Source of the DNA: an uncultured Chitinophagales bacterium | GTDB lineage: Bacteria; Bacteroidota; Ignavibacteria; UBA10030; UBA6906 | NCBI GenBank assembly: GCA_964444145.1 | Contig: CAYUFU010000005.1 | Coordinates: forward strand, 1,667 to 65,666 | Length of the DNA stretch: 64,000 nt | Reading direction: 5' to 3' | Made by a program: the position numbers and the translations under genes | Part shown: positions 11,762 to 32,769 of the stretch, piece after piece | Position numbering within the stretch: position 1 is the stretch's first letter | How the letters are laid out: each line of letters starts with the position of its first letter | The notes under the pieces: generated by a model | What the model saw: the letters and a program-made list of their open reading frames with translations, nothing else | Database searches by the model: none | Told to the model about the DNA's origin: nothing

Positions 11762-12838
11762 CTATGCCGCCGCGTGAACGCCATGCTTGCGCACGATGGC
11801 AATCGCCTTCATCGCCGCCGCCGCCGCGGATGAAACCGAATCTTCGAGGTCGGCGGGACCTGTAGCAGCGCCGCATGCAAACACGCCGGGCACACTCGTC
11901 GTCACGGTATCGAGTGCGCCGCCGACGGCTTCGATGAACTGGTATTTGTTAAGCTGCAACCCGAAAACGCTCGCCATCGCGCGCGTCCCCGCACTCGGCT
12001 CCATCCCAACCGAGAGCACAACGATATCCATTGGCACTTCCATCGGTCGTCCCATCGTCGTGTCTTCGCCGCGGATCAATAAGCGGTCGCCTTTCTTCAA
12101 TACTTCGGTAACAATGCCTTTAACGTAATTGACCTTGTGCTTCTCTTGCGCGGGCCAGTAGATTTGATTTTCCCAGTAACCGTACATGCGCATGTCAATG
12201 TAGAAGATGAAGACCTTGCAGTTAGGGAGGAGCTGGCGAACTTCGATTGCCTCTTTGGAGGCGACGCCGCAGCAGACCTTCGAGCAATACTCGTTGCCGA
12301 TTTGTCTGTCGCGCGAACCGACGCACTGAATGAAGCACAAGCGCTCCGGCGGTTTGCCGTTCGATGGACGCACGACGTTGTGTGCGCGCAGCATTTTCTC
12401 TAAGTCCACCAGTGTGATGACGTCGTCGAACTCATAATAGCCGTATTGCTGCGTTTCACGTCCCGGATCGAAATGTTGGAATCCCGTTGCGATGATGACA
12501 GCGCCCGCTTTCACTTTTTCCTGTCCCATGCCGTTCTTAACGGTGATCTCGAAATTGCCGACGGAGCCGCTTGCCGCTGTCACGGTGGAATTCAGTCGAA
12601 TGCCAACCAGTGGATTGTTGTCAACGCGCGCAACCATTTCGGCAATCGCGCTGTCTGCGCTGCGGAAATCTGGCGTGAGCGCGGCGTAACCCGCTTCGTC
12701 CGGCGTGCCGCCGAGGCGCGCGCGTTTTTCGATGAGTATCGCCGTATAGCCAAGCTCAGCGACGCTGCGCGCTGCTTCCAAGCCCGCAGGTCCGCCGCCA
12801 ATAATCATGATAGGCAAGACTGATTCAGGCATTAACAT
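11762..12838 (-). CDS. shdrA: sHdrA-like FAD/Fe-S flavoprotein
   Basis: 358-aa ORF with IIGGGPAGLEAA dinucleotide fold and Cys cluster CVGSRD...CSKVCC. Overlaps the HdrB-like gene by 14 nt. Confidence 0.85.
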   Translation of the reverse strand: MLMPESVLPIMIIGGGPAGLEAARSVAELGYTAILIEKRARLGGTPDEAGYAALTPDFRSADSAIAEMVARVDNNPLVGIRLNSTVTAASGSVGNFEITVKNGMGQEKVKAGAVIIATGFQHFDPGRETQQYGYYEFDDVITLVDLEKMLRAHNVVRPSNGKPPERLCFIQCVGSRDRQIGNEYCSKVCCGVASKEAIEVRQLLPNCKVFIFYIDMRMYGYWENQIYWPAQEKHKVNYVKGIVTEVLKKGDRLLIRGEDTTMGRPMEVPMDIVVLSVGMEPSAGTRAMASVFGLQLNKYQFIEAVGGALDTVTTSVPGVFACGAATGPADLEDSVSSAAAAAMKAIAIVRKHGVHAAA

Positions 12839-14018: not shown

Positions 14019-14072
14019 GTGGTTTGCTCCTGACTAGTTCTTTCCCAACCTTCTGTGTGCAGAGAGTTCTCC

Positions 14073-14777
14073 TCACTCAAAGCTGACAGCATAGCCCGCT
14101 TCCTCGAGTCGTTCTTCCATCACATCCTGTAAAATCATGAACAACCCCTCGTCCACTTCTTTGATCATATCCATCACGCCAGTCATGTGCCAAATCAAAT
14201 ACAGTTCAATGATGGTCTTCTCGTCCACCTGCCATCCTGTTTCTGTGGTGTGCAATGTTTCGGGCGGCAGTGCGCGGCGCCAAACATCGAGGTTATCCGA
14301 AATCGCTTTCACGTGGGGTCCCCAATCCGGGAACGCGTTCGGCTGCAGCATATCGGGGGAGACTTGCGTGCCGGTTGACATGATCTTGTAGACGACGCGC
14401 CCGTAGCCTTCGAGCGCCTCCTGTGCGGTTGCCAAGCCGTTCTTCACAGCGACTTCGCGCATGATCGTGATGATGCCGCCGGGCGAATTCTTGCGCGGGC
14501 AGCGGTCGCACGAAAAACATTGCGAGCAGTCCCAGATGCTGTCGTTCATCAATGTGTACACGAGGTCCACATCCTCGCGGGCAACGGCTTGCGCAATCTT
14601 GCGCGGACTGAAATCATAGAACCGCGCCGAGGGGCACGCGGCTACACAAATGCCGCATTCATAACAGCCATACAGATACTCCTCATAGCGCAGGTCTGCC
14701 TTGACCTGCTCGAAGAGCCGTTCTTTCTCTTCGTAGGCGACGCTCGCGTATTTTCTCCCTGTCAGGTCGAGAGCCAC
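14073..14777 (-). CDS. shdrC1: sHdrC1-like 2x[4Fe-4S] subunit
   Basis: 234-aa ORF (GTG start) with CYECGICVAACP and CSQCFSCDRCP. Confidence 0.8.
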   Translation of the reverse strand: MALDLTGRKYASVAYEEKERLFEQVKADLRYEEYLYGCYECGICVAACPSARFYDFSPRKIAQAVAREDVDLVYTLMNDSIWDCSQCFSCDRCPRKNSPGGIITIMREVAVKNGLATAQEALEGYGRVVYKIMSTGTQVSPDMLQPNAFPDWGPHVKAISDNLDVWRRALPPETLHTTETGWQVDEKTIIELYLIWHMTGVMDMIKEVDEGLFMILQDVMEERLEEAGYAVSFE

Positions 14778-14820
14778 GATGTATTTTCCTTTTCCTCTTC
14801 AACTAACCGAAGCGAAGTGT

Positions 14821-14927
14821 CTCCACCCATTTGAGGTGATGGATTATTGGATTGGTGGATTCCATTCATCCAACAATCCAGTTCAAGATCATTCGTCCCG
14901 CTTTGCGGGACGCAGGGTTCAGTGAGC
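14821..14927 (-). repeat. Intercistronic two-hairpin repeat, copy A
   Basis: Read on the minus strand: AACCCTGcgtCCCGCAAAGCGGGACGAA...GAATCCAcCAATCCAATAATCCAT, matching 37094..37200. GC hairpin at 14895..14911. AT-rich hairpin arms at 14848..14860 and 14868..14880. Confidence 0.7.
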
Positions 14928-15398
14928 CTACGCCTCAAATCCCTCCACGTGAGCGCATGCCTTGAGATTTTCTTTTTCAATCTTTTGTCGGTATGCTTCC
15001 ACTGCGGCGTCGCCTGTTGACATCGCCGCAAGATCTGCTTGAAGATTCGATGGCTGCATTTTTACAATCCACCCTGCGTTGTAGGGACTTTGATTGATGA
15101 GCTTCGCGTTCTGTCCGACCTTCGCATTGACCTCGATAATCTCTCCTGAGACGGGGGATTTTACGGGACCAACCCATTTGCCGCTTTCGACCGTCGCAAT
15201 TGGTTTTCCTTTTTCGCGCTTCGTGCCGACGCCTTTTGCTTTTGCGTGGAGCAATGGTCCGGCGAGATTTTGCGCGACATCGGTCATGCCTACGAGCACC
15301 GTTCCATCGTCATTGAGTTTTATCCAGGTGTGGTCCTCAACCGCGTAGTAGAGGTCTTTGAGAATGACACAACCACGGACTTCGTCTTTTTCGGGCAT
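14928..15398 (-). CDS. lbpA: GcvH-like lipoate-binding protein LbpA (copy 2)
   Basis: 156-aa ORF with lipoyl-lysine context VESGKWVGPVKSPVSGEI. GGAG SD upstream. Confidence 0.85.
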   Translation of the reverse strand: MPEKDEVRGCVILKDLYYAVEDHTWIKLNDDGTVLVGMTDVAQNLAGPLLHAKAKGVGTKREKGKPIATVESGKWVGPVKSPVSGEIIEVNAKVGQNAKLINQSPYNAGWIVKMQPSNLQADLAAMSTGDAAVEAYRQKIEKENLKACAHVEGFEA

Positions 15399-15500
15399 TG
15401 CTTTTTCTCCTGCTCACTGGTATTAGGCAGCGATTAGCACACCACCGCGTTCTGCACCGCTGTACAATTTGCACCCGCCATTGGTATCCCTTACACTACG

Positions 15501-15878
15501 TCAAAAGTACATCACATGATCCGATTCGAGCGCCAAATCTATGATGCTCGTTGCGCCCAGAATCTCAACGCCGGGAATCAAGTCCTCAGACTGCATGTTC
15601 CACAATGCCATGCTCTGCTGGCAGACGCGCAGCTTCACGCCGGACTCCATCGCCTGCTCAAGCATCGTTTTGAGTGTTACGTCGCTTGTCGGGTCGAGCT
15701 GGACTTTTTCCGCTGCGCCTTGCTTCAATTGATTGGTTCCATCCATCGTGAACCAAACCATCACCTCCATCTCCATTGCCGCCGCCGCCATCGCATAGAA
15801 AAGGGGAGAGTAGGTTCGGCGCGGCGTCTCGACCCCATGGGTTTGTATCACCAAAATTTTTTTCCCTTCGGCATCCAT
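15501..15878 (-). CDS. DsrE/DsrF-family sulfur-carrier-like protein (small)
   Basis: 125-aa ORF with DsrE-like layout (KILVIQTHG...) and a candidate active Cys in LRVCQQS. Confidence 0.7.
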   Translation of the reverse strand: MDAEGKKILVIQTHGVETPRRTYSPLFYAMAAAAMEMEVMVWFTMDGTNQLKQGAAEKVQLDPTSDVTLKTMLEQAMESGVKLRVCQQSMALWNMQSEDLIPGVEILGATSIIDLALESDHVMYF

Positions 15879-15977
15879 CGGGTTATTCTCTGTTGTCGTT
15901 TCCCATTCGATTACTGTTCTCTACCCTCTCGGCGTTCTTTGCAGTCAATTCATTTTCCTGTTTTCGGACAAGTTGCT

Positions 15978-16265
15978 CTAAGGATTGATTTCACACGGCT
16001 TGTTCGGGTCAGCGAGAACGATGAGATACTTCTTGTTCCATTCCCACCCGTCGTGTTCGGACATAAATTCATGCAGCTTGTCTTTTTCGGGATGATGCGT
16101 ATGAAGCTTGAGTGCAAGAGGAATGTTCCGTTCGTCCGTTGCGAGTATCTCCATCAAGAGCCATTCACCGGCGAGATCGTGATAAAGCTGGCTCAACTCA
16201 CTGAGCGCAAGTTCCTTCCCCGTCCAATCATCATTCGGCGCTGGAACCTGTAGCGTCCGTCTCAC
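15978..16265 (-). CDS. Hypothetical 95-aa protein, translationally coupled to the DsrE3-like gene
   Basis: The track ORF 15978..16331 overlaps the dsrE3-like gene by 70 nt. An in-frame GTG at 16265 overlaps the dsrE3-like stop as GTGA. No motif recognised. Confidence 0.5.
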   Translation of the reverse strand: MRRTLQVPAPNDDWTGKELALSELSQLYHDLAGEWLLMEILATDERNIPLALKLHTHHPEKDKLHEFMSEHDGWEWNKKYLIVLADPNKPCEINP

Positions 16266-16780
16266 ACAAACAAACTCACGTTCGCGTTTGCCGCGTATTC
16301 GAGGAACGTCGCCGCTCCGCCGATCTCGCACTCCGGAATAAAATCTTCTCTGGTGAAGCCGAATACATCCATCGTCATCTGGCAGCCAATCATGCGGACG
16401 TCCATTTCAACACATGCACTGCGCAAGTCCCCAACGGTCGCGACGCCTTTCTTTTTGAATGTCTGCTTCATCAGATTCGTGGCGACGTTTTCAAAGCCGG
16501 GTATGTTGCCCATTAACAAGTTTGGAATGTGCCAATTGATTTTCTGGAATCCCTCTGGTCCGAACGGCATCTTCATCGGCATCGCCGGGTTACCGACGGG
16601 CGTTACGGTTGCATGAAGGTCCTTCTTCAGCAACGGCAAGCCATAGAACGTGAAAAAGATTGCAACTTCCCAATCCATCGAGGCTGCCGCGCTCGCGAGA
16701 ATGAAGGGAGGGTACGCCCAATCCAGCGTTCCCTTGCTGGCAATAAGTGCCAGACGATGTTTTCCATTACTCTGTGCCAT
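16262..16780 (-). CDS. DsrE3-type (COG2210-like) sulfur-carrier protein
   Basis: 172-aa ORF with conserved Cys context MIGCQMTMDVFG and a GGAG SD. Confidence 0.75.
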   Translation of the reverse strand: MAQSNGKHRLALIASKGTLDWAYPPFILASAAASMDWEVAIFFTFYGLPLLKKDLHATVTPVGNPAMPMKMPFGPEGFQKINWHIPNLLMGNIPGFENVATNLMKQTFKKKGVATVGDLRSACVEMDVRMIGCQMTMDVFGFTREDFIPECEIGGAATFLEYAANANVSLFV

Positions 16781-16867
16781 AAGGATTCTCCTTCAATGCA
16801 ATGAAAAGAATTCTCAACCGAGAACGGAATAGTTGCCGCTTGAAGAGAGCCTCGCTCGATGCGTTTG

Positions 16868-17110
16868 TTAGTGAGTTACCTTGATGAGGAAGCGGAATTT
16901 TCCGTTGTCTTCTTTCTGCGCATGAAGCAACTCATGCTGCGTTTGCCGCGCCCATGCTTGCATGTCAGGAATGGACCCAGGGTCGGTTGCAACCATCTCG
17001 AGGACTTCTCCCACGTGCATTTCTTTGATGACCTTCTTGGTCTTGACAACAGGCATGGGACACAGTAAGCCGCTGCAATCGAGAGTTTTGTTAGGTTTCG
17101 TTTCGTTCAT
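16868..17110 (-). CDS. tusA: TusA-family sulfur carrier
   Basis: 80-aa ORF with canonical LDCSGLLCPMPVVKTKK (CPxP motif). Its ATG overlaps the upstream stop as ATGA. Confidence 0.9.
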   Translation of the reverse strand: MNETKPNKTLDCSGLLCPMPVVKTKKVIKEMHVGEVLEMVATDPGSIPDMQAWARQTQHELLHAQKEDNGKFRFLIKVTH

Positions 17111-17394
17111 GGTCGTGACTCCTGAACGGATTTGCGGATGTAGAAAGTGAATTCGTTCTCGCGTTCCCTCACCTCAATCAACTCGTGGCCCGTGCTCCGA
17201 CACCACGCTGGGAAATCGGAGACCGCGTTGGGGTCGGTGGAGATCAATTCCAATACCTCATACGCTCGAAGTGCGTTCATAGCGCGGTGCAGTTCAACTA
17301 CTTGCATGGGACCGAAGGTCTCACGACAATCAAGTTGCTTGCTTATCACAAGATGATTGTTGAACACGATTGGAAGGTCTGAACCTGGCTTCAA
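17107..17394 (-). CDS. TusA-like protein lacking the CPxP cysteine
   Basis: 95-aa ORF (TTG in the track; a GTG 27 nt downstream is an alternative start). It aligns by eye to TusA, but the motif reads LDCRETFGPMQVVELHR, so Cys becomes Gly and the second Pro becomes Gln. Confidence 0.7.
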   Translation of the reverse strand: MKPGSDLPIVFNNHLVISKQLDCRETFGPMQVVELHRAMNALRAYEVLELISTDPNAVSDFPAWCRSTGHELIEVRERENEFTFYIRKSVQESRP

Positions 17395-17417
17395 GATTCT
17401 GAGCTATGCAGATTCTT

Positions 17418-17433
17418 GGCAAACAACATACCA
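17418..17433 (-). promoter_or_regulatory. Candidate sigma54 (-24/-12) promoter for the tusA-dsrE-lbpA-shdr genes
   Basis: The minus strand reads TGGTAT-GTTGT-TTGC with exact GG-N10-GC spacing, 24 nt upstream of the TTG at 17394. Confidence 0.55.
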
Positions 17434-17605
17434 GTCGGACGGATAAATTGCAAGTAGAAGTTTTTTGCTCTCTTTTCGAAAAGGGGGATAATTTTGCGAG
17501 GAATCAATTTGCCAAGCGCGTGATGGGGAAATAGAGGTCATAATTCTTTGGCTACTTTTTATGGTGGAAAATATGGTTTGTGGCATTGCAGCCCTGAAAG
17601 GTCCG

Positions 17606-18622
17606 CTACACCTTCACAGCCGGCAATCCACTAACGCTGCTGAAACTCACCTTCGCGCTCTCGTCGGGATGGATGAACTCAAGCGCGCTTTTCACCGCCA
17701 TCGCCGCTTCGGCAAATCCGGTCGCGATGAGCTTGATTTTCCCGGGATACGTTGCCACATCTCCCGCGGCAAAGACGCCGGAAACATTCGTGCACATGCG
17801 CGGGTTCACTTTGATATGTTTGTCTTCCAGCTCAAGCCCCCACTGCGCGAGCGGTCCAAGATTGATTTTGAATCCAATCATGGGAAGAAGCACATCCGTC
17901 TCCAGCGTGCGAGTGTTCTGACGCCAATCGCGAATCGTGACGGCTTCCAAACGCTCGGTGCCGTGCAGCTCTTCGACGATAGTGGAGGTAAGGAGGCTCA
18001 CGCGTCCGCGACCGGCAAGCCGTTGGATTGCGCGCATCGTGGAGGGATGCGCGACAAAACCATCGGAGCGATGCACCATCGTAATCTCCGCGGCGACGTC
18101 GGCGAGGTTCAGCACCCAATCCGCCGCCGAGTCGCCGCCCCCCATGATGACGACGCGCTTGCCGCGGAAATCTTCCTTTCGCTGTACGGCATAGAAGATT
18201 CCTTTCCCTTGAAATTCCTCAGCGCGCTCATGCGTCAACTTGCGCGGCGTGATGATTCCGTTGCCGCTCGTGATGATGACGGCGCGAGAAACGTACGCAT
18301 CTCGTTCGGTGGCGACTTCGAAGAGCGTATGGCTTCCGTTCGGTTCGATGCGTCGGAGCGAGACGGCAAGTTCATTGAGATGCACGTCGGGATGAAACTG
18401 AAACGCCTGCTCTTCTAAATTTTTTACCAAGTCACGCGAGAGAATTTTCGGCAAGCCAAAGACATCGAGGACATATTTTTCCGAATAGAGCGCGGTCATC
18501 TGTCCGCCGAGCGCTGGCAGCACTTCGACAATGCGAGAAGTCGCTTCGTGCATTCCGGCGCGGAACGCCGCCGCTAAACCAGCAGGGCCGCCGCCGATGA
18601 TCGTGAGGTCGCGAACTTCCAT
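17606..18622 (-). CDS. Thioredoxin-reductase-type ferredoxin-NADP+ reductase (FNR)
   Basis: The track ORF extends to 18871 over the CBS gene. I use ATG 18622 (MEVRDLTIIGGGPAGLAAA). A second nucleotide fold is GKRVVIMGGGDSAADW, and the C-terminal motif is GVFAAGDV. Confidence 0.8.
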   Translation of the reverse strand: MEVRDLTIIGGGPAGLAAAFRAGMHEATSRIVEVLPALGGQMTALYSEKYVLDVFGLPKILSRDLVKNLEEQAFQFHPDVHLNELAVSLRRIEPNGSHTLFEVATERDAYVSRAVIITSGNGIITPRKLTHERAEEFQGKGIFYAVQRKEDFRGKRVVIMGGGDSAADWVLNLADVAAEITMVHRSDGFVAHPSTMRAIQRLAGRGRVSLLTSTIVEELHGTERLEAVTIRDWRQNTRTLETDVLLPMIGFKINLGPLAQWGLELEDKHIKVNPRMCTNVSGVFAAGDVATYPGKIKLIATGFAEAAMAVKSALEFIHPDESAKVSFSSVSGLPAVKV

Positions 18623-18629
18623 CGGCTCG

Positions 18630-19052
18630 CTACTCGCGCCCTGTCGCCTCGCCGTTTTCCAGCGTGACGAAATCATCCTGCACGTAGGCGCGCAGAATGT
18701 CGCCGCGCGAAACGACTCCCACCAACTTGTCGTTGCGAACCACGGGCAGGCGAATGAACCGACGCTCGCGCATAAGACGGATTGCTTCGTCCACCTCGGC
18801 GTCTTCCTCGATGCACACAGGATCCTTGCTCGTGATGTCTTCGGCGACGGCGGAACAAAAGCCGTACTCATCGCGATGCTGCAGCACTTTGAGGATGTCG
18901 AACTCGGTCACGATGCCGATGACGCGCTGTTGCTCATCAACCACAGGCAAGCCGCTGAAAAAACCCATAAGCATTTTCTTGGCGAGGTCCTGACAGTTGA
19001 CATTTTTCGTCGCCGCGACAACACGGCGGCTCATCACCTCACCGACTTTCAT
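18630..19052 (-). CDS. CBS-domain pair protein
   Basis: 140-aa ORF with two CBS-like halves (VVDEQQRVIGIVTEFDILK and VVRNDKLVGVVSRGDILR). Overlaps the cbbS end by 14 nt. Confidence 0.8.
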   Translation of the reverse strand: MKVGEVMSRRVVAATKNVNCQDLAKKMLMGFFSGLPVVDEQQRVIGIVTEFDILKVLQHRDEYGFCSAVAEDITSKDPVCIEEDAEVDEAIRLMRERRFIRLPVVRNDKLVGVVSRGDILRAYVQDDFVTLENGEATGRE

Positions 19053-19362
19053 GGTTCGCTCCCAACGGTTGATACACTACGAAGCTCAACACCTGACCCT
19101 GGCGCCGATTGTCGTAGCCATTGATCTTCACGTAGCAGCCGGGGTTCGCCGCTTTGCACGCTTCGATCTCGGCGAGAACATCGGCTGACGTTCGCGCGTT
19201 GAATAACGGGAGTCTCCAAAAACTCCAATAGGTGTTCGTTGGTCCGGGCTGGTCGGTGTACTCGATGTTCGGAATCCAGCCGTTCTCAAGAACGTATTGG
19301 ATCTGTTTCGCGACTTGCGCTTCGGTCATCGGGGGCAAGAAGGAAAAAGTTTCAGTTTTCAT
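19039..19362 (-). CDS. cbbS: RuBisCO small subunit (form I)
   Basis: 107-aa ORF with FSFLPPMTEAQVAKQIQYVLENGW...YWSFWRLPLF, typical of form I small subunits. Confidence 0.9.
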   Translation of the reverse strand: MKTETFSFLPPMTEAQVAKQIQYVLENGWIPNIEYTDQPGPTNTYWSFWRLPLFNARTSADVLAEIEACKAANPGCYVKINGYDNRRQGQVLSFVVYQPLGANHESR

Positions 19363-19404
19363 GTGGATGCTCCGTAATAGAAAAGGATTTGTTTTGTCGC
19401 CGCT

Positions 19405-20868
19405 TCACACCGCGACAGGCTCGATGGCGTCAACGGCTTTGTAGTCGAACGTGATTTCTTTCCACGTCTCCATCGCGACGCGCAGCTCTGGCGATCGCCG
19501 CGCCGCGGCTTTGAGAATGCTCGGACCTTCCGCGACGAGCGCGCGACCTTCGTTGCGCGCCTGGACAACGGCTTCGAGCGCAACGCGATTCGCCGTCGCG
19601 CCCGCGGCGCTTCCCCACGGGTGACCGAGCGTGCCGCCACCAAATTGCAGCACGACATCGTCGCCGAAAATCGCCACCAGCTCCGGCATGTGCCACACGT
19701 GAATACCGCCCGACGCGACGGGAAACATCCCCGGCATCGAAAGCCACGGTTGGCCGAAATAAATGCCGCGGCTCTTATCCGCCTTGACAAAACTCTCGCG
19801 CAGCAAATCGTTCGCCCCCAATGTCGAAGCCCGGTCGCCTTCCAACTTGCCGACGACGGTGCCGTTGTGCACATGATCGGCGCCGACGATGCGGCACCAT
19901 TTCGCGAGCACGCGCCAGTGAATGCCGTGATTGCGCTGGCGATCAATCACCGCGTGCATTGCGCGATGCGCGTGCAGCAACATGCCGTTGGCGCGACACC
20001 ACTTCGAGAGCGATGCGAACGCCGTGAATCCAACCGTCAGGTAATCAACCATGATGATGCGCGAGCCAAGCTCCTTCGCCAGCTCGGCGCGTTTGTACAG
20101 TTCTTCCATATCGCCGGCGGTGACGTTGAGATAGTGCCCCTTGCGCTCGCCGGTTTCCGCTTCCGCTTTGTGCACTGCTTCCATGACGAACTCGAAGCGG
20201 TCGCGCCAGCGCATGAACGGCTGCGACGTGATGTTCTCATCGTCTTTCGTGAAATCCAATCCTCCACGCAGCGCTTCGTACACGACGCGTCCATAATTCT
20301 TCGCCGAGAGTCCGAGCTTCGGCTTCATCGTCCCGCCCAGGATTGCGCGACCGTATTTGTTCATGCGATCGCGTTCGACTTGGATGCCGTGCGGCGGACC
20401 TTGAAACGTATTGAGCAGCACCGGCGGAATCCGAATGTCTTCCAGTCGTAAGGCGCGCAGCGCTTTGAATCCGAAAACATTCCCGACAATGGAGGACATC
20501 AGATTCGGCATCGAGCCTTCTTCAAAGAGATCGAGCGGATATGCGATGTACGCGATGAACTGATCGTCGCAGCCCGCGACCGGCTCGATGCGATACGTTC
20601 TGCCCGCGTAGCGCGCCATGTCCGTCAACAAATCCGACCAGACTGTAGTCCACGTGCCCGAGGAAGATTCCGCAGCAACCGCCGCCGCGGCTTCCTCCCA
20701 CGGAACACCTTCCTGCGGCGTTACGCGAAATGCAGCAAGCACTTCCGTTTCTTTTGGCGTGTAGCCGGGATCGTAGTAGAAGCGTCCGGCGGAACTGTAC
20801 TCTTTGACTCCGGCGTCGAACAATGCTTTGCCGTTCGGACCCTTTACAGATTTTGTTTGATCGTTCAT
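19405..20868 (-). CDS. cbbL: RuBisCO large subunit, form I (green-type signatures)
   Basis: 487-aa ORF with [25 protein letters not shown] (carbamyl-Lys), [17 protein letters not shown] and GGIHVWHMP. Confidence 0.95.
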
Positions 20869-20896: not shown

Positions 20897-21937
20897 TCAT
20901 CTTGTGTGCTGTGTGCTCGAGGAGCGGACTTTCTGCGCCGTACGCGGCACCGAGCTCATCCTGCTAAGCGCTGCGACAGGCGGAGCAAACGGTACGTTCT
21001 CTATGTCGCTGTACTGACGCAGCAAGTGGTACGTGAGCAAGAGTTGTGTGAGCGCGAGCGGGTGACTATGCCGCACCTCTGTCTGGTCAACGTAATCGCC
21101 GAATTGATCTTCGCCTACAGGACGCAAGCCGTTCAAGTGGAGCCATATCGCCTGTTCGAGCCGTTCAGCTTGTCCGGCGTTTACATTGCCGTCAACGTTG
21201 AGAAAGTCCACCGGGCGCCCGCAGTCGCGTCCCAAATCCAATCGCACGCCTCCCGCCGTTGAGCGGTTGCCGTTGGTGAGATAGCTCAGATCCGGATGAG
21301 GAATCGTCGGTCGCAGCACGAGTTGCACGTTGAGATTGGGTCCGGCGTTTTCGGGCGCGACGCCCTCCGATGGATGAAAGCGCACGACGACGTCTGCGTG
21401 CTCGCGCTGCGGTCGGATGAAATCGCGCGAGTCCGGCTCTCGCTTCACCATCTCGGCGCGAACCTGCTCGGAGGTATAGCCGCGCTTCGTGGTATCGCGC
21501 TTGATTTTCCATACGGTCCGCAGATCCTCCGGTGGATCGAGATACACTTTGACGTCGTAAAATTGTCGCATCACCGGCGTGAAGAATCCGAGCAAGCCTT
21601 CGACAATGATGAACTCTGTCGGCTGGATGTATTCGGGTCGAACAAGAGTTCCGTTAGAATGATCATAGACCGGTTTCAAGATAGGCTGACCGTAATGCAG
21701 CCGCTCGAGATGCAGCTCCATGACGTCGAGGTAATTGCAATCGGGATGCAGCGCGGTGATGCCTAACTGCGCGCGTTCCGTGCGATCATATCTGTGATAG
21801 TCGTCGGTGCAAATGCGTGTGACGCGCTCGGTTCCTAAAATATTCGCGAGTCCAGCGCTGATGGTCGTCTTGCCCGCGGCGCTGTCCCCCACAATGCCGA
21901 TGATGATAGGACGTTTTGCTCGCATCGCTTTGTTCAT
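20897..21937 (-). CDS. prk: Phosphoribulokinase (long, cyanobacterial/plant-like form by eye)
   Basis: 346-aa ORF with P-loop GIVGDSAAGKTT, then CTDDYHRYDR and WKIKRDTTKRGYT. Confidence 0.9.
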   Translation of the reverse strand: MNKAMRAKRPIIIGIVGDSAAGKTTISAGLANILGTERVTRICTDDYHRYDRTERAQLGITALHPDCNYLDVMELHLERLHYGQPILKPVYDHSNGTLVRPEYIQPTEFIIVEGLLGFFTPVMRQFYDVKVYLDPPEDLRTVWKIKRDTTKRGYTSEQVRAEMVKREPDSRDFIRPQREHADVVVRFHPSEGVAPENAGPNLNVQLVLRPTIPHPDLSYLTNGNRSTAGGVRLDLGRDCGRPVDFLNVDGNVNAGQAERLEQAIWLHLNGLRPVGEDQFGDYVDQTEVRHSHPLALTQLLLTYHLLRQYSDIENVPFAPPVAALSRMSSVPRTAQKVRSSSTQHTR

Positions 21938-21969
21938 GAATGTTTTTTCTGGAAGTGTTCATGAGAAGA

Positions 21970-21984
21970 GCGAACTCCATGCCA
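21970..21984 (-). promoter_or_regulatory. Candidate sigma54 promoter upstream of prk-cbbLS
   Basis: The minus strand reads TGGCAT-GGAGT-TCGC with exact GG-N10-GC spacing. The GC lies 32 nt upstream of the prk ATG (21937). Confidence 0.5.
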
Positions 21985-22245
21985 GCAAACTTACGAATCG
22001 TGAATTGCGCAAATGCAGTGTGTTTCGTGAAAGTGAATGTCGTCGCGGCGAAGAGCCGCGACAAGAATGACGCAGCGAGACTGGTTCCGCTGTCAACGTT
22101 CGTTCCGCGTCGTGATGCGAGATGACATTCAGAATTGTCTTCTGCAAGCGAAGAATCTCGAAATGGGTGGGATTCTGAATCAGGAAGTAGTGGTGACACG
22201 CGTGTCGCAGCAAAGTGTGACGAGGATGTCGCAGAGAAAAAGCAA

Positions 22246-23706
22246 CTACTCTTCGCCAGCCGTCTTGAACACCTCCGAACCGATGCTGTGTTTTGCCATG
22301 AGCCGCTGAAACGTCCGTCGCGGAACTTTCGCTGCATCGGCGGCGCGAGAGATATTCCCTCCACTTTCGGCAAGGTAGCGGCAAAGAGCTTGATGCTCGA
22401 ACTTGTCAATCATCGTTCCCTTCAGCGACATCAAGCCGTCGCGCAGCGCGTGCACGTCCAAACTTTCGCCGGCATGTTGTGGCTGGAGGACAAGCGGCAG
22501 ATGCTCGATGCCGATCTCATCCGTTGTCGTGAGCACCACCGCGCGTTCGATGACATTTTCCAGCTCGCGCAAGTTGCCGGGCCAATCGTACATCGTCAAC
22601 GCCGAAAGCGTTTCAGGAGAGATTTTGCTTACACGCTTGTTGACTTTCGCCTGCGCAGATTTCAGGAAGTGGTACGCAAGCATGGGAATGTCCTCGTGGC
22701 GCTCGCGCAAGGGAGGCAGGTGAATCGTGAATGCATTCAAGCGATAGAAAAGGTCGGCGCGAAACTCGCCGCGCTCGATCGCGTCTTCAAGCTTTCGGTT
22801 CGTCGCGGCGATAATGCGCACCTCCACCTTCTTGGTCTGAACGTCTCCGACGGCACGAATTTCTCCGGACTGCAAGAAGCGCAGCAGCTTCGCCTGCATC
22901 TCCATCGGCATGTCGCCAATCTCATCGAGAAACACCGTGCCGTTGTGCGCCATTTCGAGGAGTCCGATCCGATCGGACGCCGCGCCTGTAAACGCGCCTC
23001 TCTTGTAGCCGAACAATTCGCTTTCAATCAACGAGGGACTGAACGCCGTGCAATTGACCGTGACCAACGGCTTGTCGCGATGTGGGCTGCTTTTGTGAAT
23101 CATGCGGGCGACGACTTCTTTCCCCGTTCCGCTTTCACCGCGAATGAGGACGGTGGTCGGCGTCGGCGCGACTTTCGCGATCAGGCTTGCTGCCTCGCGC
23201 ATCGGTTCCGTTTTGCCAATGACGAACTCGCCCGCGGCATGACGCTCAAGCTCGCGCAGCATCAAGCCGTAGCGGTCTTCAAGAATTTCGCGTTTGCCAT
23301 ACTCGTCCAACAGCGTCCAGACGAAGAGCGCGCCAACGCCTCCAATCAGCTCCGTCTGCTGCGGTTTCTCGCGGAGCAACTCCTCCTGCAATTCGCAGCT
23401 ACCCGTGACGTTGATGATCAGATCCAATGCATCGTTGTGAATGAACTCGCGGTAGTCCAGTGACACAGGCACGCCGCGTTGTCGCGCAAGCGACATTCCC
23501 GGCGCGTTCGCATTGATATCAACCACCCCGACGATGGTGATGCCCGGATCGTTTTGGATGAGCTGCAAGAGCATACTGCCAGCTTTCCCCGCGCCGATGA
23601 GCAGCACGTTGACGACATGGTTGGTCGCGCTGAAGTTCCGTTTGGTGTCTGGTTCAATCATGAGTTTCGAATCAAAAACTTTCGACGTTCGAAATTCGAT
23701 GTTCAT
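22246..23706 (-). CDS. Sigma54-dependent transcriptional activator with N-terminal Rossmann-like (GxGxxG) domain
   Basis: 486-aa ORF. AAA+ motifs GESGTGKE and ESELFGYKRGAFTGA, plus a C-terminal HTH. The N-terminus reads VLLIGAGKAGSMLLQLI...GVVDIN...DLIINVTG instead of REC, GAF or PAS. Confidence 0.85.
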   Translation of the reverse strand: MNIEFRTSKVFDSKLMIEPDTKRNFSATNHVVNVLLIGAGKAGSMLLQLIQNDPGITIVGVVDINANAPGMSLARQRGVPVSLDYREFIHNDALDLIINVTGSCELQEELLREKPQQTELIGGVGALFVWTLLDEYGKREILEDRYGLMLRELERHAAGEFVIGKTEPMREAASLIAKVAPTPTTVLIRGESGTGKEVVARMIHKSSPHRDKPLVTVNCTAFSPSLIESELFGYKRGAFTGAASDRIGLLEMAHNGTVFLDEIGDMPMEMQAKLLRFLQSGEIRAVGDVQTKKVEVRIIAATNRKLEDAIERGEFRADLFYRLNAFTIHLPPLRERHEDIPMLAYHFLKSAQAKVNKRVSKISPETLSALTMYDWPGNLRELENVIERAVVLTTTDEIGIEHLPLVLQPQHAGESLDVHALRDGLMSLKGTMIDKFEHQALCRYLAESGGNISRAADAAKVPRRTFQRLMAKHSIGSEVFKTAGEE

Positions 23707-23782: not shown

Positions 23783-24085
23783 TTATGAAGCAAGCAATCG
23801 CATCGCCACTGCGACAAGAGCAAGCGCGAGAAGCCGCACGATCCATAGCCCGCGAATGTGTTGCGCAACTGCCGCGCCGAATTGCGCGCCGACGATGACT
23901 GCCAAACCAATTGCGATGGCAAGTGTCGGCAGAACGTTCCCAAGAAGCACGTGACCGAGCGCTCCAACACCCGATGAAATCGTGAGAATGAAAAGAGACG
24001 TCGCTGTCGCGACGTGCGCCGGAAAACGAAGAAGACGCACCATCGCCTGCAACAAGCACCCCTGCGCGTTACGACCCCATTTCAT
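23783..24085 (-). pseudogene. TauE/SafE (TSUP) sulfite-exporter-like C-terminal half; remnant or half-size gene
   Basis: 100-aa ORF matching only the last ~4 TM helices of TSUP proteins (HVATATSLFILTISSGVGALGHVLLGNV...GAQFGAAVAQHI). The N-terminal half is absent. The start overlaps the SulP gene end by 17 nt. Confidence 0.45.
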
Positions 24086-27972: not shown

Positions 27973-29376
27973 TCACACCGTCTCCTTGAAATCCCACTTA
28001 CTCAGCCCATGCCGCTTCATCTTCTCGAAAAAATTCTTGTAGTCCAGCTCGGCGTCGTGCGCGGCGTTCGTGATGTTCCCTTTGTGCTTCTCAAGCAAGC
28101 GGCTGATGTATTTTTTTTCGAAGTGGTCGAGCAAATCCTGTTTCGCTTTGCCGAACGGAATCCCGTCGTACACGAGGAACTGAAAACTGGCGCGATCTTC
28201 GGGCAGCAAGCAATGGGTGATGGTTTCCTTGCCGAGCACGTCTCCCTTTTCGATGATAACAGCTCGTTCGATGACGTTCTCCAACTCTCGAACATTGCCC
28301 TGCCATCGTTGGTGTGCGAGCAACTGGATTGCGTCAGGCTCGATGCTCTCGATGGTTTTGTTGAAGCGCTCCGCGTACATGCGCAAGAAATGAAACGCGA
28401 GCAGCGGCAAATCTTCGAGCCGCTCGCGCAGCGGCGGCAGCGTAATCGGTACGACGTTCAGCCTGTAGAACAAGTCTTCGCGGAAGGTGCCTTGTTGAAT
28501 CGCCTTCCGCAAGTCGCGGTTGGTTGCGGATACGAGCCGCACATCAACACGCACGGTTTCGTTACCGCCGATACGCTCGAACTCGCGCTCCTGCAGCACG
28601 CGCAAGAGTTTTGCCTGCGTTTGCAGCGGCATGTCGCCAATTTCGTCGAGGAACAGCGTTCCGCTTTCGGCAAGCTCGAAACGTCCTTGCCGCGTTCGTA
28701 GCGCGCCCGTAAACGCGCCGCGCTCGTAGCCGAACAACTCGCTTTCCAAGAGCGTGTCCGGTATTGCCGCACAGCTCAAGCCGATGAACGGCCCGCCGGT
28801 ACGGCTGCTATTGTAGTGAATCGCTTTTGCAATGAGCTCTTTGCCCGTTCCCGTCTCGCCTTGAATCAGGACTGTCGCATCCGTCTTCGCGACATCGGCA
28901 ATCAAGTCGTAGATCTTCTGCATCGCGGGAGACTTGCCGATGATGTTGCTGAACCCGTGCCGTTCGCTCAGCTCTTGGCGCAAGCGCGCCACCTCGCGCT
29001 TGAGAAGATTTTGCTCGAGTGTTCGTTTCAGTACCATCATCAACTCGCTATAGTTGATGGGTTTGCACAAGTAGTGCGCTGCGCCGAGTTGCATCGCCTT
29101 TACCGCATGCTCGATGGAGCCGTAGGCGGTGATGATGATGATGGGAACATCGAGACCCATGGTGCGCACCTTTTCGATGAGCGCGATGCCGTCTAAGTTC
29201 GGCATCATGTAATCGACAATGATGACGTCGAAGTTTTGTGTTGCGACATATAAGAGTCCCGCTTGTCCGTCGGCGGCGAGGCTTACGGCATATCCTTCAC
29301 GCCGCAGGTTTGCCTCCATCACCTTCAGGGTTGCAGGCTCGTCATCTATAACCAAAATGGCGGGCTTCGGTTTCAT
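27973..29376 (-). CDS. NtrC-type sigma54-dependent response regulator
   Basis: 467-aa ORF with a REC domain (ILVIDDE...DYMMPNLDG), AAA+ motifs GETGTGKE and GAFTGA, and a C-terminal HTH. Confidence 0.9.
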   Translation of the reverse strand: MKPKPAILVIDDEPATLKVMEANLRREGYAVSLAADGQAGLLYVATQNFDVIIVDYMMPNLDGIALIEKVRTMGLDVPIIIITAYGSIEHAVKAMQLGAAHYLCKPINYSELMMVLKRTLEQNLLKREVARLRQELSERHGFSNIIGKSPAMQKIYDLIADVAKTDATVLIQGETGTGKELIAKAIHYNSSRTGGPFIGLSCAAIPDTLLESELFGYERGAFTGALRTRQGRFELAESGTLFLDEIGDMPLQTQAKLLRVLQEREFERIGGNETVRVDVRLVSATNRDLRKAIQQGTFREDLFYRLNVVPITLPPLRERLEDLPLLAFHFLRMYAERFNKTIESIEPDAIQLLAHQRWQGNVRELENVIERAVIIEKGDVLGKETITHCLLPEDRASFQFLVYDGIPFGKAKQDLLDHFEKKYISRLLEKHKGNITNAAHDAELDYKNFFEKMKRHGLSKWDFKETV

Positions 29377-30856
29377 ACACTTTGAGGCGAGTCGGGAACG
29401 TCAGCACGGCGCGCGTTCCTCTCCCGTCGTTCGGTTCGAGTCGCGCCTTGCCTTGGTGACTTTCCATTATTTTACGAACGATGAACAACCCCAAACCTGT
29501 GCCTTGCAGCTTTGTTGTGAAGAACGGCTTGAAGAATTCGTCAGGGTCGCGGTTGCCGATGCCCGGACCATCGTCGGCGATCACGACTTCGATTTCCGTC
29601 GCGGCTTCGGTGCCGCCAGCATGGCGCGCAGAGATGCAGAGGTTTCCGCCTGTTGACATGGATTCAAGCGCATTGTTGAGCAGGTTGATGATCGCACGTT
29701 CCACCTGCGCGGCGTCCATCGGAAACATCGGCAAGCCTGCTTCGATGTCTTTCTGAAGGTGGACGCGCTTTTTTCGAATCTGACGCTCGACTTGGGCGAG
29801 CGCTTGGTCAATCACAGGCATTATCGTCTGCTGTTGAAACTCCACCACCAATGGTTTGGCGAAGTCGAGCAAGTTCGAGGTCACGTTCGCGACCCGTTCA
29901 ACTTGTTCTTCCATCAGCCTGAGATACGACACAATATTCTCTTCGGTACATTCACCTCTGAGATAATGTACAGCGCCGCGAATGGCATTCAGTGGATTGC
30001 GGACTTCATGCGCGACGACCGTGGCAATGTTGCCGATTTCCGCAAGGCGCTGTGCACGCTCCAAGTTCTGCTGCATCTTTACTGCGTCGGTGACGTCTTT
30101 GACGTACTCGATCACGTGTTCGACTTCTCCCTTTTCATCGAACAACGGAAAGTCATAAATCTCCAACATGCGGCCCTCTTGACCGGCGAACGCAGGCTTT
30201 GTACAGAAGGTCGAAGCACGGCCGCCGAGTTGAAACACCGTATCGGCCCGGCAGAACGAGCAGCGTCGCTCCGTTCCTTGACACATCTCGAAGCAATGCT
30301 CGCCGCGTACTTGCTCAAGTGTCCTCCCCATGAATTTTTCAATGACGGGATTGACATGGACGATACGGAAGCTTCGGTCAACAATCATCACCCCGTCGGG
30401 CAAATGATCGAACATGGCGTTCAGCCGTCGGTTGCTCTGCTCGAGCTTCGCGGAGTATTCTTCCGCTTGCACCTTCGAGTGTTTGAGTGCTTCGATACTG
30501 CTGCGGAGGTCGCGCACCATTTGTGCGAAGCCGCTCATCAGCTGATTCAATTCGTCGCCCGAGTCACGCAATGCGCTCACGTCTATTTCCGTGTCGAGAT
30601 TCCCGCGACGCACTTCTTCGACTTTCGCGGTGAGAGAGACGACCGGTTGCACCATGATGCGGGTGATGAGAAGTATTCCTGTTACTCCGACCGCGATATA
30701 AAAAATCGTAACGATGATGAGCGCCATCAGCAGATTCGCAGGGTTAGCGCGTACCAGCACAAGCACCAGCGCGCTCCCGGCTAGCGCCATCACAATGACG
30801 GTGGCGATCGTGCTCACCAAAAACTTGCGCTTGAGTCCTGCGTTCTTAAGCCACAT
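29342..30856 (-). CDS. Sensor histidine kinase (2 TM-HAMP-PAS-HisKA-HATPase) with Cys-rich PAS
   Basis: 504-aa ORF with H-box VVAHEVRNPLN, an ATPase region (DDGPGI, GTGLGL), and a PAS domain containing CFEMCQGTERRCSFC. Confidence 0.9.
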   Translation of the reverse strand: MWLKNAGLKRKFLVSTIATVIVMALAGSALVLVLVRANPANLLMALIIVTIFYIAVGVTGILLITRIMVQPVVSLTAKVEEVRRGNLDTEIDVSALRDSGDELNQLMSGFAQMVRDLRSSIEALKHSKVQAEEYSAKLEQSNRRLNAMFDHLPDGVMIVDRSFRIVHVNPVIEKFMGRTLEQVRGEHCFEMCQGTERRCSFCRADTVFQLGGRASTFCTKPAFAGQEGRMLEIYDFPLFDEKGEVEHVIEYVKDVTDAVKMQQNLERAQRLAEIGNIATVVAHEVRNPLNAIRGAVHYLRGECTEENIVSYLRLMEEQVERVANVTSNLLDFAKPLVVEFQQQTIMPVIDQALAQVERQIRKKRVHLQKDIEAGLPMFPMDAAQVERAIINLLNNALESMSTGGNLCISARHAGGTEAATEIEVVIADDGPGIGNRDPDEFFKPFFTTKLQGTGLGLFIVRKIMESHQGKARLEPNDGRGTRAVLTFPTRLKVYETEARHFGYR

Positions 30857-31334: not shown

Positions 31335-31350
31335 TGGCATTTGAATTGCC
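31335..31350 (+). promoter_or_regulatory. Candidate sigma54 promoter for the FadL-like operon
   Basis: TGGCAT-TTGAA-TTGC with exact GG-N10-GC spacing, 151 nt upstream of ATG 31501. Divergent from the NtrC-type two-component genes. Confidence 0.6.
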
Positions 31351-31500: not shown

Positions 31501-32769
31501 ATGAAACACGAAAGCCTTAAGATTTTTTTCGTGGCGCTTGGTGTAGCATTGTGCGCGAGCAACCTGTACGCGACCAACGGATATTTCTCACATGGGTTCG
31601 GACTGAAGCAGAAGGGAATAGCGGGCGCGGGTGTAGCGCTGAGTTTTGGACCGCTCGCGACAGCGACGAATCCCGGCAGCATAGCGTTCGTTCGAGCTGG
31701 CTACGACGTGAGCGTGTCGCTGTTCAATCCGAACCGACAATACACTGTAACCGGCGCACCTTCGATGCAGCCCGGCACCTTCGGCTTGGCACCCGGTACA
31801 ATCGAAAGCGGCTCGAAGATTTTCGTCATCCCCTCGCTCGGCGCAGTCTGGCAGGTTGATGAAAACAACTCAGTCGGTGTTGCGATTTTTGGGAACGGAG
31901 GCATGAACACTAACTATAACGCGCCCACCTTTGGCTTTACGCCGACAGGCGTTGATTTGGCGCAATTGTTTCTTACGCCCACGTACGCAATTAAGGTCGC
32001 GGAAAAGCACGGTTTTGGAATAACGCCTGTTCTCGCGTTTCAACGCTTCAAGGCAACAGGCTTGAAGGCGTTTGGTGGGTTTTCCAGCAGCGCAGCGAAC
32101 CTTTCCGATAATGCGTACAGCACCTCGCTCGGTTTCGGTGCACGCCTCGGCTATCTCGGACAGTTGATGGATTTCCTTTCGGTCGGTGCATCGATCCAAA
32201 CAAAAATCTCCATGGGGGCATTCGACAAATACGCGGGGCTCTTCGCGCAGCAGGGCGACTTCGACATTCCGACGAATTGGACTGTCGGCATCGCGCTCGG
32301 CTTCGAGCAAATGGGTCTCGCGTTCGACGTGCAACAAATCCTCTATAGCGGAATCAAATCAATCGCGAATCCCCTGCTGCCGAATCTTCAGCAATCTCCT
32401 CTCGGCGGTGATGCAGCCGCGGGTTTCGGTTGGAAAGACATGACGGTGTTCAAAGGCGGCGTGTATCTGCAAACCGAAGGCGGGTGGACGTGGCGCGCGG
32501 GCTACTCATACGGCAAGCAGCCGATTGAAGGCGGCACGAATCCGTTGACCTCGCAGGTTCTCTTCAACATCCTTGCCCCTGGCGTGGTTGAACAACACTT
32601 GACGATTGGCATTTCGAAAAAGGTGAGCGATGACCAGGAAATAGATGTTGCCGTGATGCGCGCGTTCCCTAAAAGCGTCATCGGAGTCAACCCGTTAGAT
32701 CCACTCGCCGGGCAAACGATTGAGCTGAAGATGAACCAGTGGGAGTTCAGCGTCGGGTTCGGATTCTGA
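31501..32769 (+). CDS. FadL/TodX-family outer-membrane transport protein
   Basis: 422-aa ORF with strong SD GAGGAGG, a signal peptide, N-terminal NGYFSHGFGLKQKGIAGAGVA, and a C-terminal beta-barrel ending ...FSVGFGF. Confidence 0.85.
   Translation: MKHESLKIFFVALGVALCASNLYATNGYFSHGFGLKQKGIAGAGVALSFGPLATATNPGSIAFVRAGYDVSVSLFNPNRQYTVTGAPSMQPGTFGLAPGTIESGSKIFVIPSLGAVWQVDENNSVGVAIFGNGGMNTNYNAPTFGFTPTGVDLAQLFLTPTYAIKVAEKHGFGITPVLAFQRFKATGLKAFGGFSSSAANLSDNAYSTSLGFGARLGYLGQLMDFLSVGASIQTKISMGAFDKYAGLFAQQGDFDIPTNWTVGIALGFEQMGLAFDVQQILYSGIKSIANPLLPNLQQSPLGGDAAAGFGWKDMTVFKGGVYLQTEGGWTWRAGYSYGKQPIEGGTNPLTSQVLFNILAPGVVEQHLTIGISKKVSDDQEIDVAVMRAFPKSVIGVNPLDPLAGQTIELKMNQWEFSVGFGF

Follow-up and report, generated by a model that had tools for sequence, protein, structure and literature searches.

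A putative sigma54-dependent activator with a predicted Rossmann-fold sensor ahead of a prk-cbbLS operon, and its conserved association with RuBisCO genes

In a 64-kb stretch of DNA from an uncultured bacterium (contig CAYUFU010000005.1; hereafter, the window), a gene for a putative sigma54 activator, or bacterial enhancer-binding protein (EBP), lies directly ahead of the Calvin-cycle genes prk, cbbL, and cbbS, which encode phosphoribulokinase and the two subunits of RuBisCO. The product is probably a one-component, sigma54-dependent activator of this operon, which would also take in a CBS-domain gene and a thioredoxin-reductase-like (TrxR-like) gene, and its sensor probably binds a dinucleotide. 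Sequence comparison supports an arrangement conserved in relatives, in which the activator gene, three dyad-symmetric elements (dyads), and a -24/-12 promoter precede the target operon. The earlier note on this DNA had proposed an NAD(P)(H)-sensing activator that drives carbon fixation, and possibly a sulfur operon, through RpoN; a sigma54 activator with a predicted NAD(P)-type Rossmann sensor and a conserved link to RuBisCO was borne out, while the sulfur part was not. The coordinates of all features are collected in Table 1.

The putative activator and its conserved link to RuBisCO

The assignment of the gene product as a sigma54 activator is supported by its predicted domains and motifs. 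The AAA+ domain contains Walker A, Walker B, and the GAFTGA loop, and the AAA+ motifs and helix-turn-helix (HTH) that had been read by eye were confirmed by translation, Pfam, and motif positions. The C-terminal HTH with its candidate upstream activator sites and the GG-N10-GC promoter at the target gene are also those of a sigma54 activator. The full-length model gives the order sensor, helix, AAA+, and HTH, with lower confidence in the second half of the linker helix. All NCBIfam equivalog scores are far under cutoff (the best, PrdR, reaches 353 bits versus 795), and these matches begin at residue 148 or later, with the N-terminal domain (N-domain) covered by none. The start is probably M16, because homologs begin just ahead of strand beta-1 and an identical copy at NCBI starts there. 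The identical regulator gene is present in four other metagenome samples (JGI).

The regulator gene is co-directional with the prk operon, and the 308-nt spacer between them holds three dyads of the type TGNGAC-N6-GTCNCA, which was recognized by reading related spacers, plus one GG-N10-GC promoter. Sites 1 and 2 lie just past the regulator stop codon, site 3 follows ~135 bp further on, and the promoter stands ~90 bp after site 3. The 24-bp spacing of sites 1 and 2 recurs in the related loci L010, L091, and L093; sites 1 and 2 align with the first two sites ahead of RuBisCO in L010, site 1 has equivalents in L091 and L093, and site 3 resembles the third sites (TGCGTC..GTCGCA) of L091 and L092. 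Over its initial 65 nt, the spacer can be aligned with the region ahead of RuBisCO in L010, and the remainder has diverged. A 10-bp G+C-rich hairpin (22064..22040) was considered as a terminator and rejected, as it has no proper T-run, overlaps site 3, and is missing from the relatives.

The candidate promoter, TGGCATGGAGTTCGCT, has the GG-N10-GC spacing that the earlier note had pointed out before prk. When GG and GC are both required, 11 sites occur in 128 kb (both strands), which gives 0.026 expected in the spacer on that strand and makes the match mildly unusual. Since a match in the window alone is weak evidence, the promoter call is based on conservation in related loci. The site is near-identical to the promoters ahead of RuBisCO in L093 (TGGCATGGACTTCGCA), L092 (TGGCATAGACTTCGCA), and L091 (TGGCACAGACTTCGCG), including the unusual TTCGC at -12; the promoter ahead of RuBisCO in L010 is near-identical as well, and the family consensus is TTGGAACGGGAATTGCCTTAA.

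Relatives of the regulator were found in 153 genomes by a scan of one genome per species, and the best 80 of these 153, all metagenome-assembled genomes (MAGs), were kept; the scan alignment extended to the subfamily motif [KR]VAPTPTTV. A metagenome scan with one protein yielded L090 alone, a truncated locus in which the downstream sequence is missing. In 51 of the 69 informative species-level loci, a gene for the RuBisCO large subunit follows the regulator on the same strand, with a median distance of 503 bp from the regulator stop; the same fusion beside cbb genes, as envisaged earlier, is found in other genomes. These 51 are mostly Acidobacteriota with CbbX (red-type form I), with one Verrucomicrobiia MAG and one Deltaproteobacteria MAG among them.

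In the usual layout, dyad 1 is at or after the regulator stop codon, dyad 2 is ~20-24 bp further on, dyad 3 is at ~+100, and the GG-N10-GC promoter is at ~+220 to +250. Dyads with at most one mismatch occur at 8.86 per kb between stop-20 and +150 as compared to 0.051 per kb elsewhere in the same loci (~170-fold), and at least one dyad is present in 62 of 77 loci. Likewise, a sigma54-type site on the correct strand lies at stop+184 to +257 in 60 of 76 loci (7.18 versus 0.097 per kb elsewhere). With genes inserted between the regulator and its target, all three dyads and the promoter stay immediately upstream of the target, as seen in L010 and L091 (RuBisCO), L081 (transaldolase-cbbL), and L012 (malate synthase).

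The closest relatives of the window protein (75-80% identity in a full-length search) belong to candidate division KSB1. In two KSB1 loci, L092 and L093, the regulator is followed by red-type cbbL-cbbS-cbbX-prk, the cbbL of which is 61% identical to that of the window; in L093, cbbS and cbbX are separated by a toxin-antitoxin-like pair. In L091 and L010 (labelled Ca. Coneutiohabitans thermophilus), the gene ahead of prk encodes a RuBisCO of 443 aa that lacks a small subunit; the solved structure closest to this enzyme, 6ura_A, is the form I' enzyme, and we take the L091/L010 RuBisCO to be form I' as well. In a Rhodocaloribacter assembly, the regulator is followed by two HAD hydrolase genes and then cbbL-cbbS-prk-tkt, with the dyads and promoter between the HAD genes. 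In a SAR324 MAG, the regulator gene precedes that of a 459-aa RuBisCO lacking a small subunit, with prk next. Fragmentary homologs on long contigs (L006, L007, and L008) lie directly upstream of cbbL-cbbS-(cbbX)-(prk), and in L009, a truncated regulator copy stands beside a Tn3-family transposase gene, and RuBisCO lies 6 kb beyond. The regulator genes of L006, L007, and L008 are frameshift-split in these long-read MAG assemblies. Taken together, the cassette is found past the regulator or directly ahead of RuBisCO in KSB1/Calditrichota, Acidobacteriota, Verrucomicrobiota, Rhodothermales, and SAR324, and the regulator family thus stands ahead of no fewer than three RuBisCO lineages and probably of four, namely green-type form I, red-type form I, form I', and another without a small subunit.

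In textbooks, the bacterial Calvin cycle is controlled by CbbR, a LysR-type regulator, with RegA/PrrA and CbbRRS as add-ons. Several points, to which those on the sensor and its ligand given below are to be added, weigh against control by the sigma54 activator. With the loose consensus TGGCACN5TTGCW and two mismatches allowed, the window has 24 matches versus 35 expected, i.e., no enrichment. Site 3 has two mismatches and stands ~90 bp from the promoter, as compared to 110-127 bp in relatives. No rpoN lies within the 64-kb window, and the source genome may encode a CbbR elsewhere. A simple scan of the regulator-prk spacer found no sigma70-like promoter, and non-canonical promoter types were outside that scan. 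Thus, the dyads and the -24/-12 match could be coincidental, or could serve autoregulation or control of the SulP transporter gene upstream of the regulator, with prk-cbbLS transcribed from a sigma70-type promoter under a distant CbbR. The non-significance of the single sigma54 match against the loose consensus, the SulP-EBP synteny kept in the KSB1 clade, and a view limited to the window rather than the rest of the genome are in line with this explanation. However, across phyla the sites and the promoter show conserved positions, order, and sequence; they stay with RuBisCO where the regulator is displaced and lie downstream of the regulator gene facing the cbb genes, while no LysR-type gene was found among the scanned open reading frames (ORFs) of the window or in the gene tables of nine related loci. 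We regard coincidence or a different target as very improbable.

The N-terminal domain and its family

The Rossmann fold of the N-domain is established at the level of prediction. No REC, GAF, or PAS domain was found in the regulator by a Pfam scan, as the earlier note had read, and residues 32-103 matched solely NAD-binding Rossmann families, all below threshold, with GFO_IDH_MocA at 22.9 bits (cutoff 24) and DapB_N at 21.9 bits (cutoff 25.6). The NCBIfam acetaldehyde dehydrogenase models gave 19-20 bits versus cutoffs of 166-282. When a profile of activator-type N-domains was compared with the PDB, the best match was DmpF (1nvm_B; E=3.1e-5), an acylating acetaldehyde dehydrogenase, and Gfo/Idh/MocA oxidoreductases and Rex (5zz5; 6.6e-4) were matched as well. 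The AlphaFold2 (AF2) model of the N-domain, with block-mean pLDDT of 88-98 for residues 31-120 and 78 for residues 121-130, is a five-stranded beta-alpha-beta domain followed by one long helix. A Foldseek search of the PDB with this model placed 1nvm_B first, and 6nor (GenD2, NAD-bound) and 3wgi (Rex-family RSP with NAD+) were also at the top; the probability was 1.0 for all three, and the rmsd was 1.9-2.7 A over ~95 residues for 1nvm_B and 6nor. The resemblance to the NAD-binding domain of acetaldehyde dehydrogenases, first noticed by eye, was therefore recovered by both profile and structure comparison.

The predicted fold contains the beta-alpha-beta unit of Rossmann domains (strand 32-37, helix 41-50, and strand 56-62), with a GxGxxG loop and an acidic residue that ends beta-2. 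G38, G40, G43, D63, A68-P69-G70, and T101-G102 are conserved in at least 90% of homologs, so that the sensor domain keeps GxGxxG and, 20 residues on, Asp at the end of beta-2. In folds that bind NAD or FAD, GxGxxG with an acidic residue 20 positions on is the classical fingerprint of ADP binding. The regulator has no counterpart of the catalytic half of the related enzymes. From its sequence, the N-domain very probably binds a nucleotide; NAD(H) is a plausible ligand and the preferred one, because of the fingerprint with its conserved Asp and the likeness to Rex.

A word-indexed protein search with the N-domain alone had given one partial homolog, and an exhaustive search of representatives was needed to find the family. 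A HMMER search with residues 1-161 against 1.8 billion representatives gave 1006 hits at E<=1e-3 and 289 at E<=1e-10; the match is N-terminal in nearly all of them, and the proteins vary greatly in length. The 84 longer members that were compared with Pfam include 47 histidine kinases, 15 GGDEF proteins, 14 proteins with receiver domains, and nine sigma54 activators, often with PAS and GAF domains placed between the N-domain and the output. GFO_IDH_MocA and DapB_N were reached at E<=1e-4 by 17 and 12 of these 84, respectively. Fusions to HTH_8 alone, HisKA_3, and MCP signalling domains were found by profile search. Considering the varied output fusions and the N-terminal position, we take the N-domain to be a modular signalling input domain. 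One member of the family carries the JGI name 'Rex'.

A broader proposal combines two statements. The N-domain would represent a large unnamed family of cytoplasmic sensors for dinucleotides (NAD(H)/redox), with >1000 clusters at 50% identity and fusions to histidine kinases, diguanylate cyclases, receivers, chemoreceptor signalling domains, HTH-only proteins, and sigma54 activators; and in Acidobacteriota, KSB1/Calditrichota, and several further uncultured lineages, the Calvin cycle would be switched mainly by the sigma54-activator branch of this family, independently of CbbR, with the branch carried as a portable 'regulator + three enhancers + sigma54 promoter' cassette before at least three RuBisCO forms. 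We put this joint proposal forward tentatively and give it somewhat less than an even chance.

Alternatively, the N-domain might no longer bind a small molecule and act as a dimerization or partner-docking module, with control exerted by another protein (e.g., the CBS-domain or TrxR-like protein of the operon) or by the expression level of the regulator itself. The window protein does not reach the curated Rossmann-family score, its Pfam scores being under threshold; CBS and TrxR-like genes travel with these cbb operons; and a sigma54-like site lies upstream of the regulator (23808..23793). However, the glycine loop, the beta-2 Asp, and VTG are near-invariant in hundreds of divergent proteins with different outputs, which is hard to explain without a bound nucleotide, and fusion to histidine kinase, GGDEF, REC, and MCP outputs is typical of sensor domains. 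A pure docking role is consequently improbable in our judgment.

Proposed mechanism, candidate signals, and known systems

Members of the regulator family also precede carbon genes other than cbb. In a neighbor-joining tree, the window protein groups with L010, and the next neighbors are L012 and L014, the regulators of which are followed by malate synthase and isocitrate lyase genes. In a Methylomirabilota/Rokubacteria clade, an isocitrate-lyase/PEP-mutase-family gene and a permease gene lie downstream; in two of these loci (L015 7368-7840 and L017 7365-7960), the first ORF past the sigma54 promoter encodes a small cysteine-rich (zinc-ribbon-like) protein and is followed by the isocitrate-lyase/PEP-mutase-family gene. 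In L066, a porin gene and an SSF symporter gene are downstream of the regulator. A 190-aa version without the AAA+ domain (Rossmann plus HTH_8) precedes a small ORF and isocitrate lyase (L096 6001-8634; L097 293-2996), and by its sequence, the sensor-plus-HTH pair also exists as a putative sigma54-independent regulator. Since sister members front glyoxylate-shunt and isocitrate-lyase genes, we consider the family to consist of local regulators of carbon-assimilation operons rather than of cbb operons only. With two kinds of targets, the signal that is read must therefore suit both.

By analogy with other EBPs, the Fis-type HTH would bind the three candidate dyads in the spacer, the bound activator would assemble into an AAA+ ring, its GAFTGA loops would contact the sigma54-RNA polymerase held in a closed complex, and ATP hydrolysis would open the promoter. 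The N-terminal Rossmann domain would bind a dinucleotide, most likely NAD(H), and through the long linker helix might permit or block AAA+ oligomerization, as the regulatory domains of other EBPs do. CO2 fixation would in this way be switched on by the redox or carbon state of the cell. A high NADH/NAD+ ratio could be the common signal for the RuBisCO and glyoxylate-shunt targets, because the Calvin cycle is a sink for reductant and the glyoxylate shunt goes around steps that yield NADH.

The same regulator and regulon may, however, read a different signal, if the Rossmann domain senses carbon status through CoA, acetyl-CoA, or another adenine metabolite such as NADP(H), in which case activation would reflect how scarce or abundant C2 units or organic carbon are. 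The best match of the N-domain in both sequence and fold is DmpF, and the Rossmann site of DmpF takes both NAD+ and CoA, so that the ligand could be CoA or acetyl-CoA. In addition, the sister regulators front C2-assimilation genes (L012, L014, and Methylomirabilota), the L066 regulator stands ahead of its porin and SSF-type symporter pair, and the short form without the AAA+ domain is likewise found ahead of isocitrate lyase. On the other side, GxGxxG with the beta-2 Asp is an NAD/FAD fingerprint, which disfavors NADP(H), and Rex and the NAD-bound Gfo/Idh/MocA proteins match nearly as well as DmpF. We consider a carbon-status signal unlikely, though with an appreciable chance, and continue with NAD(H) as the preferred ligand.

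Several known systems share parts of this design. The closest parallel to the sensor is Rex, in which a catalytically inert, NAD(H)-binding Rossmann domain serves as the sensor of a transcription factor, and Rex-family proteins were matched by both the N-domain profile and Foldseek. At the sensor level, the regulator may work like Rex. Rex is a small repressor of the sigma70 type in which a winged helix at the N terminus precedes a Rossmann domain at the C terminus, whereas the putative regulator has the reverse domain order, no winged helix, and an inserted AAA+ domain: the Rossmann domain comes first and is followed by the linker helix, the AAA+ motor, and the Fis-type HTH, and the protein should activate rather than repress. 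DmpF and the Gfo/Idh/MocA proteins are the best relatives of the N-domain and share the GxGxxG loop, the acidic residue after beta-2, and a T/S loop after beta-4. In contrast to these enzymes, the regulator has the ~95-residue nucleotide-binding half alone; the catalytic/dimerization domain with the active-site cysteine is missing, so the regulator is not an enzyme.

The output half is that of NorR, NifA, XylR/DmpR, and PrpR, with a sensor, an AAA+ domain with GAFTGA, HTH_8, multiple upstream sites, and a GG-N10-GC target. NorR is also reported to need three upstream activator sites (PMC2831303). In contrast to these EBPs, the regulator has a Rossmann sensor instead of GAF, V4R, PAS, ACT, or REC, and its candidate target is the Calvin cycle. 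The regulator resembles CbbR as a local control of the RuBisCO/prk operon that is signalled by metabolites; some CbbR proteins respond to NADPH, RuBP, or PEP. CbbR, however, works at a sigma70 promoter and its gene is divergent from the operon, whereas the regulator would act via sigma54 and ATP hydrolysis, its gene is co-oriented with prk, and neither HTH_1 nor LysR_substrate was found in it by Pfam.

EBPs with varied sensors and NADH sensing by Rex are already well known. In the literature searched, nothing was found on sigma54/EBP control of cbb genes or on Rossmann sensors in EBPs; coverage was partial, and an earlier description is possible. Both a Rossmann sensor on a sigma54 activator and sigma54/EBP control of Calvin-cycle operons across phyla and RuBisCO forms are therefore new as far as this literature goes, in agreement with the earlier suggestion of an undescribed regulatory logic. 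If true, the Calvin cycle would follow a different logic in these bacteria, with a sigma54 promoter that gives no transcription until an ATP-driven activator acts on it under the control of a nucleotide-sensing domain. This would concern abundant lineages of soil and sediment, among them Acidobacteriota/Terriglobales, KSB1, Calditrichota, some Verrucomicrobiota, Rhodothermales, and SAR324. The dyad TGNGAC-N6-GTCNCA together with the promoter TGGAAC/TGGCAY-N5-TTGC would offer a route to predicting the onset of facultative autotrophy in uncultured bacteria, and the same cis elements could be used in engineering as a compact, orthogonal, metabolite-responsive expression cassette. Furthermore, a widespread uncharacterized sensor domain is brought forward with the hypothesis of NADH/NAD+ sensing.

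Neighboring genes and other features

Upstream of the regulator, the window encodes a SulP/STAS transporter, a type-IX-secreted FG-GAP protein, and a histidine kinase/NtrC-type pair. The CBS and TrxR-like genes downstream of cbbS are conserved companions of these cbb operons, and in Acidobacteria and Verrucomicrobia they are placed between the sigma54 promoter and cbbL. For example, CBS genes also occur in the cbb operons of L053, L063, and L093, and TrxR-like homologs lie between the promoter and cbbL in L030, L053, and L063. The ~220-nt leaders between the sigma54 promoter and cbbL in Acidobacteria share a near-invariant palindrome/hairpin, GCCGGGCCAACCAGCCCGGC, and CCGGCGAACCAGCCGG upstream of it. 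No compensatory base changes and no Rfam family were found for this leader hairpin, and Rfam had no family match in the window or in four related loci.

Table 1. Positions and strands of the features in the window, followed by positions in related loci (coordinates of each locus).
Feature	Position	Strand	Evidence and remarks
Gene of the putative EBP	22246..23706	-	Longest ORF, translation 486 aa; Pfam Sigma54_activat, AAA_lid_14 (lid domain), HTH_8
Probable true start	ATG at 23661	-	M16, product 471 aa; identical NCBI protein (P0212) starts there
Predicted Rossmann-fold sensor domain	23332..23616	-	Residues 31-125, ~95 residues; Pfam (sub-threshold), PDB profile, AF2, Foldseek
GAGKAG glycine loop	23578..23595	-	Residues 38-43
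Other sensor motifs			Asp63 at end of beta-2 (conserved); APG, residues 68-70; VTG, residues 100-102
Predicted long linker helix, sensor to AAA+	23230..23340	-	Residues 123-159; single helix in N-domain AF2 model
AAA+ sigma54-interaction domain	22720..23223	-	Pfam PF00158, 1.5e-69, residues 162-329
Walker A GESGTGKE	23116..23139	-	Residues 190-197; motif search
GAFTGA sigma54-contact loop	22981..22998	-	Residues 237-242; motif search
Walker B FLDEIG	22915..22932	-	Residues 259-264; motif search
C-terminal Fis-type helix-turn-helix HTH_8	22291..22404	-	Pfam PF02954, residues 435-472, 21.5 bits versus 22-bit cutoff (just short); helices predicted in full-length model
Candidate upstream activator site 1	22216..22233		+ strand TGTGACGAGGATGTCGCA, - strand TGCGACATCCTCGTCACA; only perfect TGNGAC-N6-GTCNCA in the window
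Candidate upstream activator site 2, GGTGACACGCGTGTCGCA	22192..22209		1 mismatch; 24 bp from site 1
Candidate upstream activator site 3	22057..22074		- strand TGCGTCATTCTTGTCGCG; 2 mismatches to family dyad
Candidate sigma54-type promoter (-24/-12), TGGCATGGAGTTCGCT	21984..21969	-	GG-N10-GC; ends 31 nt before prk ATG at 21937
10-bp G+C-rich hairpin, TTGTCGCGGC tcttc GCCGCGACGA	22040..22064		Overlaps site 3
prk, phosphoribulokinase, first operon gene	20897..21937	-	Pfam PRK; NCBIfam NF005655, 419 bits versus cutoff 236
cbbL, green-type form I RuBisCO large subunit	19405..20868	-	Best PDB relatives 7qsw_A and cyanobacterial form I entries
cbbS, RuBisCO small subunit	19039..19362	-	Pfam RuBisCO_small, 8.7e-39
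CBS-domain protein, likely operon member	18630..19052	-	Gene call; Pfam CBS
TrxR-like flavoprotein, likely last operon member	17606..18622	-	338 aa (gene call); Pfam, NCBIfam
Sigma54-like site, TGGTATGTTGTTTGCC	17433..17418	-	GG-N10-GC; upstream of TusA/DsrE/LbpA/sHdr-like cluster; no matching enhancer dyad nearby
Best sigma54-like site of the window, TGGCATTTGAATTGCC	31335-31350	+	Upstream of FadL/TodX-type outer-membrane gene 31501-32769 (+)
Sigma54-like site, TGGCGATGCGATTGCT	23793-23808	-	~90 nt upstream of longest-ORF activator start, inside 3' end of TauE-like ORF
Split or truncated regulator genes and toxin-antitoxin-like insertion in relatives	L006 10001-11351; L007 8001-9358; L008 8001-9364; L009 8001-12199; L093 8779-9529		
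Companion genes in relatives	L053 7408-9409; L063 3113-5986; L030 7012-8082; L093 11787-12209		CBS and TrxR-like genes
Leader palindrome in relatives	L008 9595-9720; L022 2237-2375; L023 7604-7725		Also in about 20 other acidobacterial loci; missing from the window

Beyond the cbb operon lies a separate, large cluster of the sulfur-oxidation type (7702-17394, - strand), which contains two TusA genes, DsrE-family genes, a GcvH-like lipoate-binding protein (LbpA), heterodisulfide-reductase-like (sHdr-like) Fe-S/CCG proteins, and an ETF alpha/beta pair. Together with the green-type RuBisCO, the gene content of this cluster suggests a sulfur-oxidizing chemolithoautotroph of the KSB1/Calditrichota group. 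The idea that the sulfur operon is a second target of the Rossmann activator, raised in the earlier note, was rejected: no dyad with at most two mismatches was found in 12976-20222, and none near 17395..17605 ahead of the operon; the sigma54-resembling motif there, TGGCAAATTGATTCCT, is without the GC dinucleotide; and the spacer holds a sigma70-like TTGGCA-16-AATTAT. The site TGGTATGTTGTTTGCC upstream of the same cluster, if real, might be served by another activator.

Given its position, the sigma54-like site TGGCGATGCGATTGCT might serve as a promoter of the regulator gene itself. The site TGGCATTTGAATTGCC adjoins the histidine kinase/NtrC-type response-regulator pair (genes 27973-30856, - strand), and the KSB1 relatives show synteny of this pair with SulP and the Rossmann EBP.

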